Sequence record: SRR31156797_11538
Strand: one strand, 5' to 3'
DNA length: 62,838 bases
Shown here: positions 1 to 8,118 of the stretch, in pieces
How the letters are laid out: each line of letters opens with the position of its first letter
Position numbering within the stretch: the first letter of the stretch is position 1
Program-made: the position numbers and the translations under genes
Notes under the pieces: model-generated
What the model was told of the DNA's origin: nothing
Seen by the model: only the letters and a program-made list of their open reading frames with translations
The model's database searches: none

Positions 1-74
1 AAGCGAAAGCTTCAACCCTTTTTTGCGTTTGTGCTGCAATGCCTTTGGTCTGGTCAAATTGAAGTAGTAGAGCG

Positions 75-764
75 CTACAAAAGCTTATGCATATTCTTCA
101 AAGCCTCGCGCTTGCTTAAGCCCGAAAGCCGATTCGCATTTGTCTCTACATAATCTTTTACGATCTGCGGATGAGTCCAAGCATAATCGCGAAGCGCCCA
201 GCCGATGGCTTTGCGCAGAAAAAATTCCTTTGAATTAATATTTGGTTCAATGCATTGCTGTAAGAAAATGAAATCAAGTTCATTTTTAAATCGAAGCTGG
301 CACAGAATAGCTGAACGTCGTTTCCACATGTGCTCATCGGTGGACCATTCAAGCATCAAAGATTTCATGCGTTCCGGCTCGGCGCGCAGGATATTTCCAA
401 GTGGCCCGGTCAGGTCATCACAATAATCCCACCATGCTCCGCTGACTATCATTTCCTTTACCATGGGCAGAGCTTCCCAAGTATGAAATTTGTGGCAAGG
501 CTTCCAGTCGATCAATTCCAGCGCCGTGTATCGCTCTTCACGAAATTCAGCTCGGCGCCAAAGTTCGAGCACTGCTGACTGCCACTTATCAAAATCCCAC
601 GGCTCGAATTCCTTGAAAATCTGAAGACATGGTTTACGGCGCAGGGGAGCACGGATGCCGTAAAAATCCATTTCGGATTTCATATATTTCTTCATGCTCG
701 GTGCGCGATCTGGATCAGCAAGTGCTTGTAGGGTTTTGCGGATGGTGGCAAGAAGAGTGGTCAT
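75..764 (-). CDS. DNA alkylation repair protein (AlkD-like HEAT-repeat DNA glycosylase family)
   Basis: Motifs YMKSEMDFYGIRAP, WWDYCD, W-KRRSAILCQL and EFFLRKAIGWALRDY are typical of the DNA_alkylation/AlkD family. The ATG directly follows the upstream stop; SD-like AAGGGAG. Confidence 0.85.
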   Translation of the reverse strand: MTTLLATIRKTLQALADPDRAPSMKKYMKSEMDFYGIRAPLRRKPCLQIFKEFEPWDFDKWQSAVLELWRRAEFREERYTALELIDWKPCHKFHTWEALPMVKEMIVSGAWWDYCDDLTGPLGNILRAEPERMKSLMLEWSTDEHMWKRRSAILCQLRFKNELDFIFLQQCIEPNINSKEFFLRKAIGWALRDYAWTHPQIVKDYVETNANRLSGLSKREALKNMHKLL

Positions 765-2138
765 CTACCCATCTCCCTTGAAAAATTTAACATACTGCCG
801 GTCCGTGTTGTTGATATGGTTAATAATCCAATCTTGCAGAAATGAATCAATACTGTCCGGGAAGATATATTTCTTGTCCCGGTTCAGATCCATTACCTCG
901 CGAGTGATGCGGCGATGTTCTTCCATGTGCTTTTCAATTTCAGGGAAGCCTTTTTTCTGCATAAATGCTTCTTCACGGGCAAAGTGGCTGGAGGTATATT
1001 CCAACAGACGGTCGAAAAGTCGCGCAATTGCTTCTTGGTCCTGCCCATCGCGTAGGGCTGTCTGGAAATCTTCGGCATAACGGACCAACACCCGATGTTC
1101 GGCATCAATGGAAGGAATTCCGAGCAATAGGTCTTCGGACCATTTGATGTTGCTTTGTAGTTCACAACAGGCTCCGTCTTTTTTAACCAGCTCCAGCACG
1201 GAATCGCCGTAGTTTAGCTCCATGTCATCAGCAGGATTTTCAATATCAGTTCCATCGGCGCGATGTAGAACCAGTGCGCTGATGGCTCCGGTTTTTTCCT
1301 TCACTTCAGCGACTTTGGTCGGGGAGCTATCGTAGTGGGGAAAAATACGCAGACTATAACCCATTACTTCGTGGGCGGCAGGGGATTTGGTTTCCGGTTC
1401 GGCCACTCCGGCATGGCGCGCAAGAATATGGCCAATCTGTTCGCCGCCAAGGTCAAGCGGGTAAACCACGGTATTGGCTCCGGCGCGGAGCATGCGATAT
1501 TCAATGGACGGGTTAGTTCCTCGGGCTACAACGAAAATGTCGGAATTAAGTTCCCGGGCTGCAAGTGATATATTAATGTTGCTGGCATCATCATTAATAC
1601 AGAGCACAATGAAATCAGCCCGACGAATTCCAGCAGAAAGCAGAACTCCGTCCACAGCACCGTCGCCATGTAAAATTTTATAACCGCGCTGCTCAGCCTC
1701 AGTTAATTGTTCCTCGTCATTATCCAGAACAACAAAATCCAAACCCAGTTCATAGAGTTTCAGGGATACGGCCCGGCCTATTTTACCGTAACCGCAGACA
1801 ATTGTGTGCTTTTCTAATTTGTTGATTCTGTCGTTCATTTTCTTTTTCTCGTAAAGGTTTCTAATTCCTGACTGAACAATAACTTTTGCGACTTGAGCCA
1901 CAAAAACAGCGGCAAGACCGAGTCCTGCAAAAATCAGGACTATAGTGAAAATCCTTCCGGAAGGGGAGAGATCATGTATTTCCCCGAACCCGATAGTAGT
2001 GATGGTGATCACGGTCATGTAAAGAGCATCGAGTATGGACCAGTTCTTTTCAAAGTACAGGTAGCCCGCGGTTCCGCCCAAAAGGACCGTGAAAAATGCG
2101 ACTAGTAGTTGTATATTCTGACGAATGTTAGGTGACAT
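765..2138 (-). CDS. 2-TM potassium channel with RCK (TrkA-N) domain and C-terminal bacteriohemerythrin domain
   Basis: Pore/filter TITTIGFGEI between two TM helices; Rossmann motif HTIVCGYGKIG; C-terminal W-x5-GIPSIDAEH...HFAREE...HMEEH...WIINHINNTD hemerythrin signature. Confidence 0.9.
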   Translation of the reverse strand: MSPNIRQNIQLLVAFFTVLLGGTAGYLYFEKNWSILDALYMTVITITTIGFGEIHDLSPSGRIFTIVLIFAGLGLAAVFVAQVAKVIVQSGIRNLYEKKKMNDRINKLEKHTIVCGYGKIGRAVSLKLYELGLDFVVLDNDEEQLTEAEQRGYKILHGDGAVDGVLLSAGIRRADFIVLCINDDASNINISLAARELNSDIFVVARGTNPSIEYRMLRAGANTVVYPLDLGGEQIGHILARHAGVAEPETKSPAAHEVMGYSLRIFPHYDSSPTKVAEVKEKTGAISALVLHRADGTDIENPADDMELNYGDSVLELVKKDGACCELQSNIKWSEDLLLGIPSIDAEHRVLVRYAEDFQTALRDGQDQEAIARLFDRLLEYTSSHFAREEAFMQKKGFPEIEKHMEEHRRITREVMDLNRDKKYIFPDSIDSFLQDWIINHINNTDRQYVKFFKGDG

Positions 2139-2337
2139 CTTGCAGCTTATTTTCCAATGTGTTTATATACGAAGTGATTGTTATAAATTAAAATATGGTA
2201 ACTTCCCCCTTTTATCAACCAGTTAGCAATCAACTGACAATGACAGATGCGATAATTTTCATGGACATAGCAGATTACAGGCAATACAATTCAACCTGCC
2301 TGTAAATATAGAGAATTTTATTTAAAGGAGTTTCATA

Positions 2338-2535
2338 GTGAGTGATGTCAAAAAAAGTGTAGATTATATCTTCCATGGTCTGGATGCTCTTGATATTCTG
2401 CTCTGTTCAAAAGAAGCTGAAAACCTCAATGTCCGCAATATTGTTGGACTTCTTCACCCTATCCTCGACGATGCCAAGCGTAGGGCACATACTGAAATTT
2501 CCGCACGCAGTGGCAATAAAGAAGAAGACTCTTAG
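2338..2535 (+). CDS. Small hypothetical protein (65 aa)
   Basis: GTG start preceded by AAAGGAG; fills the gap before the amidohydrolase; no recognised family. Confidence 0.6.
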   Translation: MSDVKKSVDYIFHGLDALDILLCSKEAENLNVRNIVGLLHPILDDAKRRAHTEISARSGNKEEDS

Positions 2536-2552
2536 GGCGTAAAGGATTTTAA

Positions 2553-3806
2553 ATGGATTTAAATAAACTGGTTCATGCTGAACTGGACGAATTGGTTGGA
2601 ATTTACAAACATCTGCATGCCAATCCTGAGCTTTCAAATGAGGAGGAGAAATCTTCCAAGTTGGTTGCCGATCAGCTAGAGGCGTGCGGTATTTCTGTAA
2701 CCCGCAACTTCGGTGGTTACGGCGTTGTGGGGATTCTTGATAATGGCGATGGCCCGACCATGATGGTCCGTGGCGACATGGATGCTCTGCCCATCACTGA
2801 AGAAACCGGACTTGATTACGCTAGTTCTGTCAGAGGTAAAGATCCTTCCGGAAACGATACTGGTGTGATGCATGCCTGCGGTCACGATATACACATGACC
2901 ACTCTGGTTGGGACCGCCCGGGTGCTTTCCAAATCCACGGAGCACTGGAGCGGAAAAATAATATTTGTAGGTCAACCCGCTGAAGAATCTATGTCCGGGG
3001 CAAGAACCATGATTGAGCAGGGGCTTTTTGAGAAGTTCGGTCTTCCTGATTATTGCCTTGCCACTCATGTTATACCCAAGCTTGAAGCCGGGAATATTAT
3101 GGTTAAATCCGGTCCGATCATGGCTGGAACATATCAGCTGAAAATTACTGTTCGCGGAGTAGGGGGGCATGGTGCCATCCCGCAAGAATGTATTGATCCT
3201 GTTGTACTCGCCGCCCGGATCGTAACTTCGCTGCAAACTATTGTCAGCCGCGAGTTTAGCCCGCTTGATCCGGCCGTTGTCACCGTCGGTTCCATCCATG
3301 GCGGAACAAGGGCCAACATAATTCCCGGTGAAGTGGTTATGGAAGTTACCGCAAGATTTTGTGATTCCGAAGGTCATGACCGAATTTTCGAGTCAGTGAA
3401 GCGAATTTGCAAATATGAAGCCCTGTCCATGGGATTACCTGAAAATTTGTTGCCTATAGTTGAATTTGATGATGAAAGTGATCTTCCTGCCACAACCAAT
3501 GATAGTGGATTAGCTGAGATTGTCCGCAAAGCTGCCGGAGAACATCTTGGCGAAGAGAAGGTCTATGAAGCTGAAATGGTCATGGGTAGTGAGGATTTTT
3601 CCCTGTTCAGAACAGCTGGAAGCAAAGAAACTCCCTCGTGCCTGTTCTTTACCGGGGCTACGTCTGCTGAAGAAATGGCTTTGTTCCATGAAAAAGGAAT
3701 TAACCCGCCATCAATTCATAACAGCAAATTTTATCCACCGCCTGAACCGACCATCAAGACTGCCGTCACCACCATGGCGGGAACGGTATTGAGAATTTTG
3801 AGATAG
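2553..3806 (+). CDS. M20D family amidohydrolase (hippurate hydrolase/aminoacylase-like)
   Basis: HANPELSNEE, RGDMDALP, MHACGHDIH, QPAEE, GGHG, GSEDF and C-terminal H-S motifs. Confidence 0.92.
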   Translation: MDLNKLVHAELDELVGIYKHLHANPELSNEEEKSSKLVADQLEACGISVTRNFGGYGVVGILDNGDGPTMMVRGDMDALPITEETGLDYASSVRGKDPSGNDTGVMHACGHDIHMTTLVGTARVLSKSTEHWSGKIIFVGQPAEESMSGARTMIEQGLFEKFGLPDYCLATHVIPKLEAGNIMVKSGPIMAGTYQLKITVRGVGGHGAIPQECIDPVVLAARIVTSLQTIVSREFSPLDPAVVTVGSIHGGTRANIIPGEVVMEVTARFCDSEGHDRIFESVKRICKYEALSMGLPENLLPIVEFDDESDLPATTNDSGLAEIVRKAAGEHLGEEKVYEAEMVMGSEDFSLFRTAGSKETPSCLFFTGATSAEEMALFHEKGINPPSIHNSKFYPPPEPTIKTAVTTMAGTVLRILR

Positions 3807-3808
3807 TT

Positions 3809-3834
3809 TGCCTTCGGCGGCTTAAACCCTTTTG
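3809..3834 (+). repeat. Intergenic REP-like element copy (TGCCTTCGGCGGCTTAAACCCTTTTG)
   Basis: Near-identical to 31044-31070; shares its 5' core with 19758; starts 2 nt after a stop codon. Confidence 0.6.
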
Positions 3835-3844
3835 CAAGCAAAAA

Positions 3845-3880
3845 AAGAATCGCAATACTTAAAAAGGTATTGCGATTCTT
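3845..3880. terminator. Bidirectional intrinsic terminator between convergent genes
   Basis: Perfect 14-bp inverted repeat AAGAATCGCAATAC/GTATTGCGATTCTT with flanking A-tract. Confidence 0.75.
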
Positions 3881-3911
3881 GTCTAATTGAAAGGGATGAG
3901 GTCTGGAGACA

Positions 3912-5999
3912 TTAAAATGGAAAACTAACTTCTTTTCCGGCTCCGACTTTGGCCAGCTTGGTATCGATGGCATTTAGTCGTGCTTTTGCGGCTTCCTTCT
4001 GAGCCTTACGATCAGCTCGTTTGATGACTGTTTTCAGGAACCGCTTGGCAGTTTCGAATTGTCCCTTGTGTTCATAAATCATGGAAGCACGATACATGGC
4101 AGTTACAGCCCAGATATTCTGTTCCGGAAATTTCCATGCCAATTCTAGATAATGCTTGAGCGCCTTTTCCTTTTTACCCATAGCGTGCTCACCCTCGGCA
4201 ATCCAGAAGAGTACTTCTGCGCGCAGTTCGTCATTTTCCAACTGGTCACGGCCTAACCAGATTCTTTCAAGTATCGCTTGAGCTTTTTTTAAGTCGCCTT
4301 TCTGCTGGATCATCAGCGCAAGCTTCAACTCTTTTTCTGCAGGAAGGGTTCCTCCTGACTGAAGAATTTCATTATAAGCATTCATGGCTTTATCGTCTTT
4401 ACCAACAGCAAGATCATAGGCAACTGCGGCGCTTAACCATTTTAAGCGTAATTCTGGGCCATACTTATCTTGATCAACACGTTTTAGGTAGTATGCAGAT
4501 AATTTGAAATCCCTGTTTTGAGCAGCCTGATCGGCGAGATAGATGAAACTTTCTGCCCCAAGTTTAGATTTGGGAAACAGGAAAGCACAGCGTCGGGCAA
4601 TTTTGGCACCTTGCTTTTTCTCTACTTGTTTTGCCAGATCAGCAAAGACAAGCAATCTATCCAGAGGGTTACTATTAATAACCGTATTGAGGCTCTTAGG
4701 GGAAATAGACTTCCAGAATGAGGTCTTGATTTCTGCTAAATACTCGATCCCGGCAGCTTCACTCAGTCCGGAAATGATATAAAGATGCTCATTCTTTCCG
4801 TAGTCAGCAGTACTGAGAACTCTGGATAAAGGCAGCTTGAAGGCAATCCCACAGGCAATCCTGAGGCTCATGGGCAGAGTGTCTTTATCCAAACGCTTCA
4901 GGATACTTTCGGCAAGCTCCATGTCTCCGGTCAGAAATGCAAATGCCAAACGATAGTTTTGCAGTGCATTAACCAGATCGCTAGACAGCAATAAAGATCC
5001 GGTTTCGCGGTCGATGGTTTCCAGAGCTTCCTGCGGCTCCATTTCCATTAGCTTTTTACGGAAAACATTCCAGGCAGGTGATGTCGGAGCACCAAGCTGC
5101 CAGAGAGCAGGGGAGACAATTGCTGGTTCTAGAACCCCTGCCTTGATAAATGAAGCCGGTCGAACCAGATTCTTTTCATTAAATATAGACACTGACTCGG
5201 GAACTTTTCCGGATTCAAGGTACTGGTTCACTGATTTCCAGAAAGTCTGAACCGTTGAATTGGATACTGCGTCCAAAGCGCGATTGGATTTTTCCCATTC
5301 GCCAATGCTGGCCGCTGCCAAAGACTGAGCAATAAACAGACGATCTTCATCACCTACAGCAGTTGAGTTGGTAACAAGAGGGATACTCTCCGAAGTGCTG
5401 TTCAAACCTCCAAGTCTGGATTTGCTATTGATAACAAAATAGGTTGTGGGCCAGACTTTCTCAGCTTGTCCAAAGGTCTGTTCGAGAAGCATCTTGCGAG
5501 ATTCACGGGCGGAGTCAGGGGTTACCCGATATCCCCAATAAAGGGAACGCCAGACATCAAACCAGATGCTTTTAAGGTATGAATCTTCTCTAAACTTGGC
5601 AGCCATCACATCTTGATCCATCAAGCGTGCGGCCTGACTGAACCAAATTACACCCTTTACAGGATCACCGAGGGCGCGTTGACATTTACCGCCCAGCCAG
5701 AGCCGGGTGATTTCCTGGGTCTTATCACTGAAGGCTGGTGTGGATTGCAAGTTTTCAAGACAAGCTGAGTAGCGCCCCAATTTAAAAGCTGTCTCGGCAC
5801 GCTTCAAAATCAGCTCTGGTGTATTTCCGGTCTGAGAATAGTTCTGTTCCAGAATGTCCCATGCGCCATATTTTTCCAGCCAGGATTCAAAGGAATCTTT
5901 CTTTCCTGATGAAGCGGCAAAAACATTTCCACTTCCACCGAACAAAACGGCTGCAGCCAGAAGGGAAGGTAGTATCTTTTTCTTAAGTCTCAAACTCAT
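3912..5999 (-). CDS. Exported tetratricopeptide-repeat protein
   Basis: N-terminal signal peptide (KKK, hydrophobic core, VFA-A); helical repeats such as AEVLFWIAE...ALKHY and AMYRASMIYEHKGQFETAKRFL. Confidence 0.75.
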   Translation of the reverse strand: MSLRLKKKILPSLLAAAVLFGGSGNVFAASSGKKDSFESWLEKYGAWDILEQNYSQTGNTPELILKRAETAFKLGRYSACLENLQSTPAFSDKTQEITRLWLGGKCQRALGDPVKGVIWFSQAARLMDQDVMAAKFREDSYLKSIWFDVWRSLYWGYRVTPDSARESRKMLLEQTFGQAEKVWPTTYFVINSKSRLGGLNSTSESIPLVTNSTAVGDEDRLFIAQSLAAASIGEWEKSNRALDAVSNSTVQTFWKSVNQYLESGKVPESVSIFNEKNLVRPASFIKAGVLEPAIVSPALWQLGAPTSPAWNVFRKKLMEMEPQEALETIDRETGSLLLSSDLVNALQNYRLAFAFLTGDMELAESILKRLDKDTLPMSLRIACGIAFKLPLSRVLSTADYGKNEHLYIISGLSEAAGIEYLAEIKTSFWKSISPKSLNTVINSNPLDRLLVFADLAKQVEKKQGAKIARRCAFLFPKSKLGAESFIYLADQAAQNRDFKLSAYYLKRVDQDKYGPELRLKWLSAAVAYDLAVGKDDKAMNAYNEILQSGGTLPAEKELKLALMIQQKGDLKKAQAILERIWLGRDQLENDELRAEVLFWIAEGEHAMGKKEKALKHYLELAWKFPEQNIWAVTAMYRASMIYEHKGQFETAKRFLKTVIKRADRKAQKEAAKARLNAIDTKLAKVGAGKEVSFPF

Positions 6000-6273
6000 G
6001 AAAACCTCATGGATTTAGATTTCAAGTCAATGTGATTAATGGGTTACCACTGAGATAAAGAAAAGCGTCTCAAGAGGCAAATTTAATCGTTCACTATGAT
6101 CAACTAATGTCCAAGAAATCGATTAGTAGCAAAATAAACCATCCTCACACATATGATATAAGATCGATAATAGCTAAGAATCTTAATTTTAAAACTAAAA
6201 TAAAAAACAGCTTATCGATGTCGGATAGTATCTGGATGAAATGAACACTTAAATTCTAGACTTCATCTGCCAA

Positions 6274-6301
6274 AGTTTACATAATTTACATTATGAGACA
6301 A
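6274..6301 (-). other. Putative chromosomal dif site (XerC/XerD recombination site)
   Basis: Minus strand reads TTGTCTCATAA-TGTAAA-TTATGTAAACT: an 11-6-11 layout with CATAA/TTATG inner palindrome and a XerD-type TTATGT arm, in a 600-bp AT-rich non-coding gap. Confidence 0.85.
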
Positions 6302-6531
6302 TTATATAAAGTGAGTAATATCAATATATTACATACTCTTTGTCCTGTATTGAGAAATTCTGGGGCTGTACGAGCTTAATATCGCTCTTTTGGTTCTATA
6401 GCCTGGCTGCTTGATCTGTTTTTTGGATTTGTTCTACCTTAAGCTTTTGAATTTAATCTCTTGAATAGAGGACTTAGAAATTAAATTTAAAACGCTTAGA
6501 AACTAAATTTGGAAGTTTCATTTTCTTCATC

Positions 6532-6567
6532 AAAAAAGCCTTGGCTGACACTCAGTCAGACAAGGCT
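6532..6567 (-). terminator. Intrinsic terminator after the transaldolase-like gene
   Basis: AGCCTTG-CTGAC...GTCAG-CAAGGCT stem with an A6 tract (U-tract on the minus strand). Confidence 0.65.
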
Positions 6568-6601
6568 CTCAGGACAATTGTATGTGATTGTCAACTTAAC
6601 G

Positions 6602-7195
6602 CTAGCTGACGTTCTCCATAAACTTCATTAAAATTTTAAAAGGAACTTCCATTCCGTTAATTCCCATTCGGGTAAGGTAGTTTAAATCCACAGAATCATC
6701 GAATACTTCAGCCATGACATCTGCATTCAAACCGTGAATACTTATCAGACTTAAAGCTTCGGGCAGAATTGAATAGCTATCTTTGTCTCTTTGCAAAACG
6801 GAATTCATATTAAAACTCACAAAATCCGCACCAGACTTGGCCGCCATAATGGCCTTGGTAATACTGTCCAGCCCGCTCATTTTCACTGACACATCTTTAG
6901 CTGTCAGTAATTTGCATGCCTTAAAACCTTCAAGTGTAGCTTTAATGCTGATTACAATATTTGGACTAAGCCGCAATAACTGAAGCGAGTCGTTGAGAAT
7001 ATCTTCAGAGCTGTTGCCGTTTGCAGGTACAAAAATAGGCCCATTTACTCTTGAGATGATAGATTTAGAATTATTATCCGCAGCAACGCACTTTTCTTCA
7101 CCGTTCTCCGGCAGTAGGCAGACACCGTCGATTAATCCATATTCGACGGCTTTTTGTACTTCGTATAGTGAACAGGTTTTGAGGTAGATTTTCAT
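6602..7195 (-). CDS. Degenerate transaldolase/fructose-6-phosphate aldolase family protein (catalytic residues substituted)
   Basis: Colinear with small TAL/FSA proteins (MKIYL, GLIDGV, GPI, EGFKACK-L, AIMAAKSGADFVS, G-x4-VPF), but Asp6, TTNP and the Schiff-base Lys are replaced. Strong SD. Confidence 0.75.
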   Translation of the reverse strand: MKIYLKTCSLYEVQKAVEYGLIDGVCLLPENGEEKCVAADNNSKSIISRVNGPIFVPANGNSSEDILNDSLQLLRLSPNIVISIKATLEGFKACKLLTAKDVSVKMSGLDSITKAIMAAKSGADFVSFNMNSVLQRDKDSYSILPEALSLISIHGLNADVMAEVFDDSVDLNYLTRMGINGMEVPFKILMKFMENVS

Positions 7196-7222
7196 AGTAC
7201 TCCCCTTCCCTCTTTCTGGCGC

Positions 7223-7259
7223 AAAAAAAGAACCCTTTCAACTCAGGTCAAAAGGGTTC
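7223..7259 (-). terminator. Intrinsic terminator between the TRASH-domain gene and the transaldolase-like gene
   Basis: GAACCCTTT...AAAGGGTTC stem followed by a 7-U tract on the minus strand. Confidence 0.6.
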
Positions 7260-7279
7260 ATATAAATATTACGAACAAC

Positions 7280-7546
7280 CTATTCGCTGCTATCAGCCTC
7301 AAGTCGTTTGATATACTTCTCACGACACTCGTAGGAGCAGAAGCATTCAACCTTTTCCCCGTTGCGGACTCGAATATCGCCATCTTTGGGTACATAGGCT
7401 CCGCAGATGGGATCTTTGACCATCTCGCCGGTTTTGACTTTCTTATTAAAGTCCTTGCCTTCTTTTTCCTGTTTCTTTTTCTGATCGCCAGTAAATAGCT
7501 TCCACATGACAAATGCGGCAATGGCGATAACAATAAATTTCATCAT
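7280..7546 (-). CDS. Small membrane-anchored TRASH/YHS-like metal-binding protein
   Basis: N-terminal TM helix, then VKDPICGAYV...CFCSYECREKY. Start moved to the ATG at 7546 behind a GAGGTG SD. Confidence 0.8.
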   Translation of the reverse strand: MMKFIVIAIAAFVMWKLFTGDQKKKQEKEGKDFNKKVKTGEMVKDPICGAYVPKDGDIRVRNGEKVECFCSYECREKYIKRLEADSSE

Positions 7547-7565
7547 AACTATTATACACCTCAAT

Positions 7566-7599
7566 AAAAAAAGGCCGCACCTAAATAGATGCGGCCTTT
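7566..7599 (-). terminator. Intrinsic terminator after folK
   Basis: AAAGGCCGCA...TGCGGCCTTT stem with an A7 tract. Confidence 0.7.
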
Positions 7600-7602
7600 G
7601 AA

Positions 7603-8118
7603 TTAATCCTGATAAATCTTATTACCTTCAGTGCGGTAATCGATTTTCTTCAGAGCGTCAGCAACGGATGTTCCGTCAGGGAAGACGAGTTCCGGATTAA
7701 TATCGGTCAGCGGCAGAAGCACAAATGCTCTTTCCAATGCCCTTGGATGCGGAACTGTTAAATAGTTACCGCTCTCGATAATCCGATTTCCGAAGAGAAT
7801 GATGTCCAGATCAATGGTCCGGGGGCCGTTTTTAACTTCCCGTACTCTATCCATCTGCCCTTCCACAGCCTGAAGCGTGGAAAGAAATCCTTCTGCGGAC
7901 CAGAGTTCGGGGTCAACGTCGAAACGGACCACCTGATTTTTAAACCATGGCTGATCTTTCAATCCCTGAGGTTCAGTCTCGTAAGTTTCAGACCAGACTT
8001 CAGGATCAATACCTTCATATTTTTCCAGTCTAGCAACGGCCTGATTCAAATTATCTTCAGTGTCTCCAATATTTGAACCAAGACTGACGTAGACCTTTAC
8101 AGTTTGGATATCCGTGAT
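7603..8118 (-). CDS. folK: 2-amino-4-hydroxy-6-hydroxymethyldihydropteridine diphosphokinase (start uncertain, probably non-canonical)
   Basis: YETEP, QPWFKNQV, GPRTIDLDIILF and VPHPRALERAFVLLPL motifs. The frame continues upstream of the TTG at 8049 through VYVSLGSNIGD. Confidence 0.92.
   Translation of the reverse strand: MTDIQTVKVYVSLGSNIGDTEDNLNQAVARLEKYEGIDPEVWSETYETEPQGLKDQPWFKNQVVRFDVDPELWSAEGFLSTLQAVEGQMDRVREVKNGPRTIDLDIILFGNRIIESGNYLTVPHPRALERAFVLLPLTDINPELVFPDGTSVADALKKIDYRTEGNKIYQD

Follow-up and report, generated by a model that had tools for sequence, protein, structure and literature searches.

The 62,838-nucleotide stretch SRR31156797_11538, which we call the window at its full length, carries at positions 765-2138 of its minus strand a gene in which a K+ channel pore, an RCK domain and a bacteriohemerythrin domain follow one another in a single polypeptide. 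The open reading frame is unbroken, and its translation of 457 aa has no stop or frameshift within it. A preliminary description made from the sequence had proposed this fusion and suggested that oxygen might control the channel; on the fusion itself Pfam, NCBIfam and motif assignments agree. The gene and its parts, in window coordinates, are the following.

765-2138, minus strand: whole coding sequence, K+ pore followed by RCK followed by bacteriohemerythrin, 457 aa plus stop (Pfam, NCBIfam, translation).
1875-2096, minus strand: two-transmembrane pore module, Ion_trans_2, residues 15-88, comprising M1, pore helix, filter and M2 (E 6.6e-18; AlphaFold2 helices 3-29, 35-48 and 59-106; matches to the MthK and NaK pores).
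1983-2000, minus strand: selectivity filter TTIGFG, residues 47-52 (translation; family counts).
1836-1838, minus strand: internal ATG, Met101, candidate second start of a soluble RCK-hemerythrin subunit (conservation; spacing of MthK Met107).
1458-1802, minus strand: RCK N-lobe, TrkA_N Rossmann fold, residues 113-227 (TrkA_N E 1e-28; GsuK 8.9e-27; MthK 1.7e-20).
1776-1793, minus strand: GYGKIG dinucleotide-binding motif, residues 116-121, with D139 as the terminal acid of beta2 (translation; family counts).
1179-1376, minus strand: RCK C-lobe, TrkA_C-like, residues about 255-320 (AlphaFold2 strands 261-267, 285-292, 298-300 and 313-319 and helix 276-283; Foldseek alignment to MthK).
1149-1178, minus strand: short variable tether, residues 321-330, holding GACC at 322-325 (mean model confidence of the block 59; poorly conserved columns).
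777-1148, minus strand: bacteriohemerythrin domain, residues 331-454, an N-terminal KWSEDL loop followed by a four-helix bundle (NF033749; alignment to DcrH-Hr, 2avk; AlphaFold2).

The three Pfam matches, to Ion_trans_2, TrkA_N and Hemerythrin (the last at residues 341-450, E 1.4e-11), all exceed the curated cut-offs against which they were judged, and their E-values exclude chance. An AlphaFold2 model computed from A1, a 61-sequence family alignment (mean predicted local distance difference test score (pLDDT) 80.9, predicted template-modelling score 0.61), places in the same order two transmembrane helices with a pore helix, a Rossmann lobe of alternating beta strands and alpha helices at residues 112-243, a beta-rich lobe, a stretch of low confidence and a four-helix bundle. 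In a Foldseek comparison with the PDB the full-length channel MthK ranks first (6oly_A, E 1.7e-17, 319 aligned columns, 313-residue chain); the template-modelling scores of the model against this chain are low (0.34/0.45) because the domain orientations differ. The best solved relatives found by phmmer among PDB sequences are GsuK (4gx5/4gx0), MthK (1lnq) and the hemerythrin domain of DcrH (DcrH-Hr, 2avk). From sequence and model together we favour, if only slightly, the view that the protein is a tetrameric two-transmembrane K+ channel of the MthK/GsuK kind, with a DcrH-type bacteriohemerythrin domain borne on each RCK C-lobe.

The same architecture recurs in relatives of the protein. Of 8000 candidates scored in a word-indexed search, 1089 proteins reached E<=0.001; in the best 120 of these 1089, the first 60 (P0002-P0061) are 36-94% identical to the window protein (P0001) over at least 93% of the query. 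Precomputed annotation places all three Pfam domains in 58 of the 60, the hemerythrin call being absent from P0047 and P0048, and a rescan of A1 found TrkA_N and Ion_trans_2 in 61/61 sequences and Hemerythrin in 60/61. These proteins are named in databases as 'bacteriohemerythrin' (M. salexigens, M. zosterae, D. inopinatus, a Spirochaetales metagenome-assembled genome (MAG) and 'bacterium'), as 'hemerythrin-like metal-binding domain protein' (M. ferrireducens) or as 'voltage-gated potassium channel' (JGI), and several relatives lie on contigs of 1-5.5 Mb. A one-genome-per-species scan, considered for the best 80 of 600 pattern matches, includes seven full-length loci (L001-L007), two of them from Maridesulfovibrio, one from Desulfovibrionaceae and four (L004-L007) from Spirochaetaceae/Spirochaetia MAGs. 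In a sample of 401 genomes from the family of G001, the genome to which L001 belongs, some match at E<=1e-10 is present in 357, and 16 encode the full-length fusion at 48-96% identity and with no internal stops, with one further partial copy; the remaining matching genomes have plain channel-RCK proteins that align to residues about 12-240 or 12-320. Searched exhaustively with a profile, 1.84 billion representatives (50% clustering) yielded 15 full-length fusion representatives and several fragments. When the hemerythrin part (residues 328-457) was used as the query, 16 proteins were found, all within the fusion family, a result that is uninformative on the lineage from which the domain was donated. 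The named records of the fusion are confined to Desulfovibrionaceae and spirochaetes, and the family is a modest one.

Some members and relatives depart from the common form. P0135 (401 aa) has pore, RCK N-lobe and hemerythrin, with most of the RCK C-lobe swapped for a short segment. A 48%-identical full-length copy at G038:C2:33713-35071 lies within an open frame of 803 aa, and a longer form may therefore exist. The Humidesulfovibrio MAG copy at L008:6001-7267 is matched over residues 4-154 in one frame and over 158-423 in another, with nothing matched beyond 423, so that either the gene is broken or the assembly is wrong there; another, weak hemerythrin-like match lies in this locus at 1390-1743. 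G001 also encodes a second, plain channel-RCK paralogue at C1:1906261-1906923, with 35% identity.

Comparison with L001 gives ratios of non-synonymous to synonymous change (dN/dS) of 0.021 for the pore, 0.020 for the RCK N-lobe, 0.040 for the C-lobe and 0.030 for the hemerythrin domain. Against L002 and L003, for both of which synonymous sites are saturated, the respective non-synonymous differences are 0.081 and 0.224 in the hemerythrin domain, 0.084 and 0.232 in the pore, and 0.239 and 0.486 in the C-lobe. Purifying selection acts on the hemerythrin part as strongly as on the pore.

The pore has the M1, pore helix, T-x-G-[YF]-G filter and M2 of an RCK-regulated two-transmembrane K+ channel, and the RCK N-lobe sits directly behind M2, in line with the MthK/Kch-like pore and TTIGFG filter of the preliminary description. 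Conservation of the filter across A1 (n=61, as for all residue counts below) is high: T47 in 59, T48 in 61, G50 in 61, F or Y at position 51 in 38 and 23 respectively, and G52 in 60. Identity with the voltage-gated channel Kch itself was considered and rejected. The NF007828 equivalog model scores 86.6 bits against a cut-off of 425, the match being confined to positions 151-374 of that model, its pore and RCK, and the AlphaFold2 model has just two transmembrane helices ahead of the RCK domain, with no counterpart of S1-S4.

The C-terminal domain is assigned by the NCBIfam model 'bacteriohemerythrin' (NF033749, residues 331-454, 112.1 bits against a cut-off of 84) and by TIGR02481 (108.9 bits against 51.75), and the structure model gives it helices 342-363, 368-396, 401-420 and 427-453 behind the loop at 331-341, a fold of the DcrH-Hr kind. 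The iron ligands predicted from the translation are H348, H385/E389, H404/H408 and H441/D446, which make up the signature H-HxxxE-HxxxH-HxxxxD (PMC9388753); the complete ligand set reported in the preliminary description is thus present, and all seven residues align with the ligands of crystallised DcrH-Hr (phmmer 1.5e-17 with the whole protein and 1.7e-18 with the domain alone). In the family H348 is found in 60 sequences, H385 in 61, E389 in 60, H404 in 52, H408 in 61, H441 in 60 and D446 in 60; the full HHEHHHD string is present in 50/61, W333 of the N-terminal loop is kept in 58/61, and P0047 has a changed C-terminus in the alignment. The column of H404 (window 927-929) holds Gln in P0019, P0020, P0023, P0024, P0025, P0027, P0028, P0030 and P0033 (the P0019-P0033 group), a subclade in which the di-iron site may be altered.

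The hemerythrin domain of the Desulfovibrio vulgaris chemoreceptor DcrH (2avk, 2awc, 2awy) is the closest solved one, aligning in both its ligands and its KWSEDL-type loop, with a 3-residue deletion here in the loop before the last helix. In DcrH, too, the domain is C-terminal and cytoplasmic on a membrane protein of a sulfate reducer (PMC9388753), whereas its output there is a methyl-accepting chemotaxis signalling domain and here would be a channel gating ring. The 2022 review gives DcrH-Hr a Kd for O2 of 0.3 µM and fast auto-oxidation, and describes its N-terminal loop as disordered in the deoxy protein but ordered in the met form (PMC9388753). Two other precedents, the diguanylate cyclase Bhr-DGC of V. 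cholerae and Bhr-HD-GYP of Ferrovum, resemble the present case in that a hemerythrin domain governs a fused output through its diferrous or diferric state, the former being 10 times more active in the diferrous state and the latter active only when ferrous (PMC9388753); they differ in that the hemerythrin is N-terminal and the output a soluble enzyme with no membrane part. The P1B-5 ATPase is, according to the same review, the only characterised ion-transport protein with a hemerythrin-like domain at its C terminus, but it is a primary transition-metal pump whose ligand set is incompletely conserved, and a link between its hemerythrin-like domain and the metal that it carries is possible (PMC9388753). 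The precedents for fused sensors that the preliminary description invoked therefore exist, but its emphasis on O2 binding needs amendment, as those characterised follow whether the di-iron site is reduced or oxidised; azide binding is reported to be without effect, so that regulation tracks redox state and not ligand binding (PMC9388753).

The RCK domain retains the features of a nucleotide-binding site. Its GYGKIG motif, noted in the preliminary description and now placed within the TrkA_N match, is kept at G116 and G118 in all 61 sequences and at G121 in 58, with D or E at position 139 in 37 and 24 respectively. This is the GxGxxG...D/E pattern (PMC3510474) of nucleotide-binding KTN/RCK domains such as GsuK RCK2, KtrA and TrkA, and in GsuK RCK2 it binds ADP and NAD+, both of which activate the channel (PMC3510474). 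GsuK, the multi-ligand-gated channel of Geobacter sulfurreducens (4gx0/4gx2/4gx5), is the best sequence match among solved structures, shares the GFG filter together with the GxGxxG...D/E RCK (PMC3510474), and has an anaerobic host that, like the host here, was formerly placed in the Deltaproteobacteria; it differs in that each subunit has a tandem pair of RCK domains and lacks a hemerythrin, and it has a Ca2+ inhibitory site. By analogy with GsuK RCK2, one input to the gating ring is probably a nucleotide, ADP or NAD(H).

MthK, the Ca2+-gated K+ channel of Methanothermobacter and the best structural match, shares the succession of a two-transmembrane pore and a single RCK domain with N- and C-lobes, and its sequence match (1lnq) extends across query residues 11-236. 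It differs in lacking both GxGxxG and a C-terminal sensor domain, and in its acidic Ca2+ ligands. At the positions of D184, E210 and E212, which we take to be those ligands (D184N and E212Q mutants appear in PDB titles), the present protein has C180, R206 and T208 in the phmmer alignment (offset 4), and the family has C in 49, S in 7 and A in 5 at the first, R in 43 and Q in 14 (also L or T) at the second, and S in 25, T in 14 and E in 8 at the third. MthK-like Ca2+ gating was accordingly rejected as a candidate, activation of that type being unlikely because no acidic residues match the ligands. Since the nucleotide site is intact and the Ca2+-ligand acids are missing, O2 or redox state would not gate the channel by itself but would be a second input in addition to the nucleotide.

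Residues about 255-320, which the preliminary description had taken for a divergent linker, are instead predicted to form the beta-rich RCK C-lobe: AlphaFold2 models them so, and the Foldseek alignment to MthK extends over 319 columns. Support from sequence is weak here, as the TrkA_C Pfam model has no match in P0001 and matches 16/61 members at E<=1, at best at 3.6e-4. What remains as linker is a tether of about 10 residues (8-44 in the family, median 16). It does include the GACC with which the linker had been said to end, but the motif is not conserved: C325 is found in 15 of the sequences, and the six commonest residues in the column of C324 do not include Cys. The Cys pair was for this reason rejected as a redox or metal site, and GACC is a feature at the level of the genus only.

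The strongest comparative argument that the hemerythrin is an input device comes from sibling channels, which hold receiver domains at the same slot. A quick tree of the channel-RCK core (residues 10-320), built by maximum likelihood (LG+G4, SH-aLRT) from 121 rows that take in every one of P0001-P0121, unites in one clade, at 98% support, all 61 hemerythrin fusions along with 10 short proteins and 7 of the 11 receiver-domain fusions; outside this clade are 39 plain channels bearing TrkA_C and 4 receiver fusions. The hemerythrin label changes 4 times on the tree, at least 3 of these changes being forced by well-supported branches. All ten next-best representatives of the exhaustive search have Response_reg, two of them with Hpt as well; it begins at residues 331-350, or at 657 in P0141, which has an N-terminal extension. 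The position behind the RCK C-lobe thus looks like a swappable slot for regulatory inputs. The channel-RCK-receiver proteins, with or without Hpt (P0062, P0063, P0139-P0142 and others), are the nearest relatives of the core and carry their extra domain at the same start; they differ in that a two-component kinase would supply their input, by phosphorylation, in place of a metal-centre sensor. They themselves look like an uncharacterised phosphorylation-controlled K+ channel, with P0062, P0063, P0066, P0068, P0070, P0139-P0142, P0148, P0156-P0158, P0162 and P0178 as members.

The internal ATG may add a further element. Residue 101 is M in 57 of the family sequences, V in 2, I in 1 and A in 1, and it lies in the alignment 10 residues ahead of the His that opens beta1, the spacing of Met107 in MthK. 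A soluble MthK RCK fragment (M107-A336), expressed separately, co-purifies with that channel and has been proposed to complete its ring (PMC2573919). GGAG or GGGAGG stands 6-8 nt upstream of the corresponding ATG in the spirochaete loci L004-L007, and in the window and L001-L003 there is just GAG or GAA within a purine-rich run; P0146 (RCK plus hemerythrin), P0163 and P0189 begin exactly at the Met101 equivalent and may be truncated gene calls. It is a speculation, drawn from sequence and the parallel with MthK Met107, that Met101 might yield a soluble RCK-hemerythrin subunit that completes an octameric ring.

The reading we prefer, with guarded confidence, is that the protein is an RCK-gated K+ channel whose gating ring would receive an O2 or redox input from the di-iron domain and probably a nucleotide input at the Rossmann site; gating by O2 is our inference. 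In the anoxic, reduced cytoplasm the di-iron site would be diferrous. Entering O2, or another oxidant, would bind the site and auto-oxidise it to the diferric form, and oxidation would order the N-terminal loop of the hemerythrin, as in DcrH. Once ordered, the loop could alter where the bundle sits against the C-lobe or how freely it moves, and this change could reach the RCK ring, since the KWSEDL loop follows directly on the short C-lobe tether; the RCK dimer or ring would then move between closed and open states with altered open probability, a nucleotide at the Rossmann site serving as the second input. As to direction, a weak guess from physiology would have the channel open on oxidation; with respiration blocked by O2, the K+ gradient could then sustain the membrane potential.

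Several observations weigh against a channel gated by oxygen or redox state in this way. The Gln at the H404 equivalent in 9/61 members, and the absence of two ligands (H348 and E389) from P0048, have not led to loss of the domain. P0064, P0065 and P0067, which have no hemerythrin, nest within hemerythrin clades; either the domain was lost or the gene calls are truncated. A tether that varies in length from 8 to 44 residues and is modelled at low confidence leaves no rigid signalling helix between sensor and ring. The filter is GFG, and in GsuK a Phe in the filter is tied to weaker selectivity for K+, the GFG filter there having given only weak selectivity (PMC3510474). The proximate signal may not be O2, as the known bacterial hemerythrin sensors react to redox state. 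Nor would O2 sensing be unique to the channel in such cells: the close relative G001 has 8 hemerythrin-domain loci, namely five frames of 145-170 aa, two of about 590-600 aa that are possibly DcrH-like receptors, and the channel. Finally, a conserved operon partner was sought at 8 full or near-full loci and none was found, so that the neighbourhood gives no hint of physiology. A complex prediction of RCK (101-325) with hemerythrin (328-457) scored 0.00 in a run that had no controls, and is evidence neither way.

The alternative that stands up best, although we regard it as unlikely, makes a nucleotide (ADP/ATP or NAD+/NADH) the main gate, with the hemerythrin merely tuning assembly or stability or acting as a minor modulator. 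It draws on the invariant or nearly invariant GxGxxG...D/E, on the activation by ADP and NAD+ of GsuK, the closest solved RCK (PMC3510474), and on the nested relatives whose want of a hemerythrin suggests that the core works alone. Set against it are a constraint on the hemerythrin equal to that on the pore and ligands kept over 36-94% identity, which are hard to reconcile with a mere appendage, and the occupation of the same slot in siblings by receiver domains, which are regulatory by nature.

We think it distinctly unlikely that the domain reports iron availability, or NO or H2O2, and so ties K+ flux to iron or to nitrosative or peroxide stress. One route would be a fold dependent on iron occupancy, as is reported for the hemerythrin-like domain of eukaryotic FBXL5. 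A di-iron site can in principle lose its metal or react with NO or H2O2. A subclade here has a ligand altered from His to Gln, and Bhr-HD-GYP binds iron only in its ferrous form (PMC8846402). On the other side, DcrH-Hr, the closest solved relative, binds O2 with submicromolar affinity as given above (PMC9388753), the ligand set is the canonical O2-binding one, and for anaerobic hosts O2 is the obvious stressor.

A domain with no signalling part, serving as a local scavenger of O2 or peroxide, as an O2 store or as a membrane-sited module for structure or oligomerisation, appears quite improbable. Many single-domain bacterial hemerythrins are reported to have unknown or non-sensing roles (PMC2556348, PMC9388753), and no docking of hemerythrin on RCK could be demonstrated here; yet one tethered domain per channel subunit would be stoichiometrically useless as a scavenger, and its fusion to a regulatory ring at the receiver-domain slot points to regulation. 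An artefact of assembly, for which the preliminary description had allowed, or of annotation, or else a pseudogene in decay, as the split L008 copy and the degenerate C-termini of P0047 and P0048 might suggest, is already refuted by 60 relatives, by intact frames in 16 genomes at 48-96% identity, several on contigs >1 Mb, by a dN/dS of about 0.03, and by the clean frame in the window.

The host of the window is a marine, Maridesulfovibrio-like sulfate reducer of the Desulfovibrionaceae. M. salexigens and Maridesulfovibrio sp. have proteins 94-96% identical to this one, and the window DNA is collinear with L001 at 80-85% identity. Desulfovibrionaceae of this kind are anaerobic sulfate reducers, and the preliminary description's attribution of the DNA to an anaerobe is borne out by both the protein identities and the synteny. 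A Logan contig of the DNA run that is the probable source of the sequence spans the stretch in one piece, which does not amount to independent support; this was the single run listed with the sequence, and no RNA run was listed beside it. Downstream of the channel gene lies the following feature.

75-764, minus strand: DNA_alkylation repair gene, PF08713 (E 9.8e-58).

Because the channel stop codon (765-767) adjoins the start of the DNA_alkylation gene (764), the two are probably co-transcribed. Upstream of the channel gene there is a gap of 414 nt, then a divergent M20 peptidase gene and then that of a tetratricopeptide repeat (TPR) protein; of the 8 loci that are full or nearly so, only the two from Maridesulfovibrio, L001 and L002, also have the DNA-alkylation-repair, M20 peptidase and TPR genes as neighbours. 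Just past the TPR gene the GC content dips to 0.31 (window 6001-6500), the other 500-base bins of 1-8000 ranging from 0.39 to 0.53. Rfam gave zero matches across the whole window, and a scan of 1-2700 for promoters and terminators did no better than shuffled sequences (4 found against 4.4 expected, and 5 against 3.2).

A literature search for fusions of hemerythrin with a K+ channel, RCK, TrkA or Ion_trans_2 found no paper on this architecture, as the preliminary description had also held in knowing of no characterised channel so built, although it may be tabulated in supplements of PMC4919030 (S2 Fig) or PMC2556348 (Additional file 1). Channels are not mentioned in the available portions of the 2008 survey (PMC2556348), the 2016 hemerythrin census, which counts 56 architectures (PMC4919030), or the 2022 review (PMC9388753); among the four characterised bacterial hemerythrin sensors treated in the last, a methyl-accepting chemotaxis protein, a diguanylate cyclase, an HD-GYP protein and a P1B-5 ATPase, none drives a channel (PMC9388753). 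Public databases therefore already contain the architecture, yet within the reach of these searches nobody has described or characterised it.

The known O2-sensitive K+ channels of animals sense oxygen indirectly. If the present channel works as proposed, no shorter route from oxygen to K+ homeostasis and membrane potential would be possible than its built-in O2- or redox-reactive metal centre. A proposal of wider reach, which we put forward tentatively and with more doubt, is that these are directly O2- or redox-gated channels in which oxidation of the tethered di-iron centres, up to eight in a ring should Met101 also give rise to soluble RCK-hemerythrin subunits, would switch the RCK ring within seconds of the entry of O2, integrated with NAD(H) or ADP at the Rossmann site; strict anaerobes, among them sulfate reducers and spirochaetes, would thereby gain an electrical response to O2 through the membrane potential, and hemerythrin and receiver domains would be plug-in inputs to one chassis. 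The protein would offer a tractable model both for the action of extra domains on RCK rings and for the way in which a hemerythrin domain relays its signal to a fused output, which the 2022 review describes as still unclear for DcrH (PMC9388753). The hemerythrin and receiver versions of the one chassis would likewise make a compact modular scaffold for comparing input mechanisms, and such a channel may explain part of the reaction that anaerobes show within seconds of exposure to O2.

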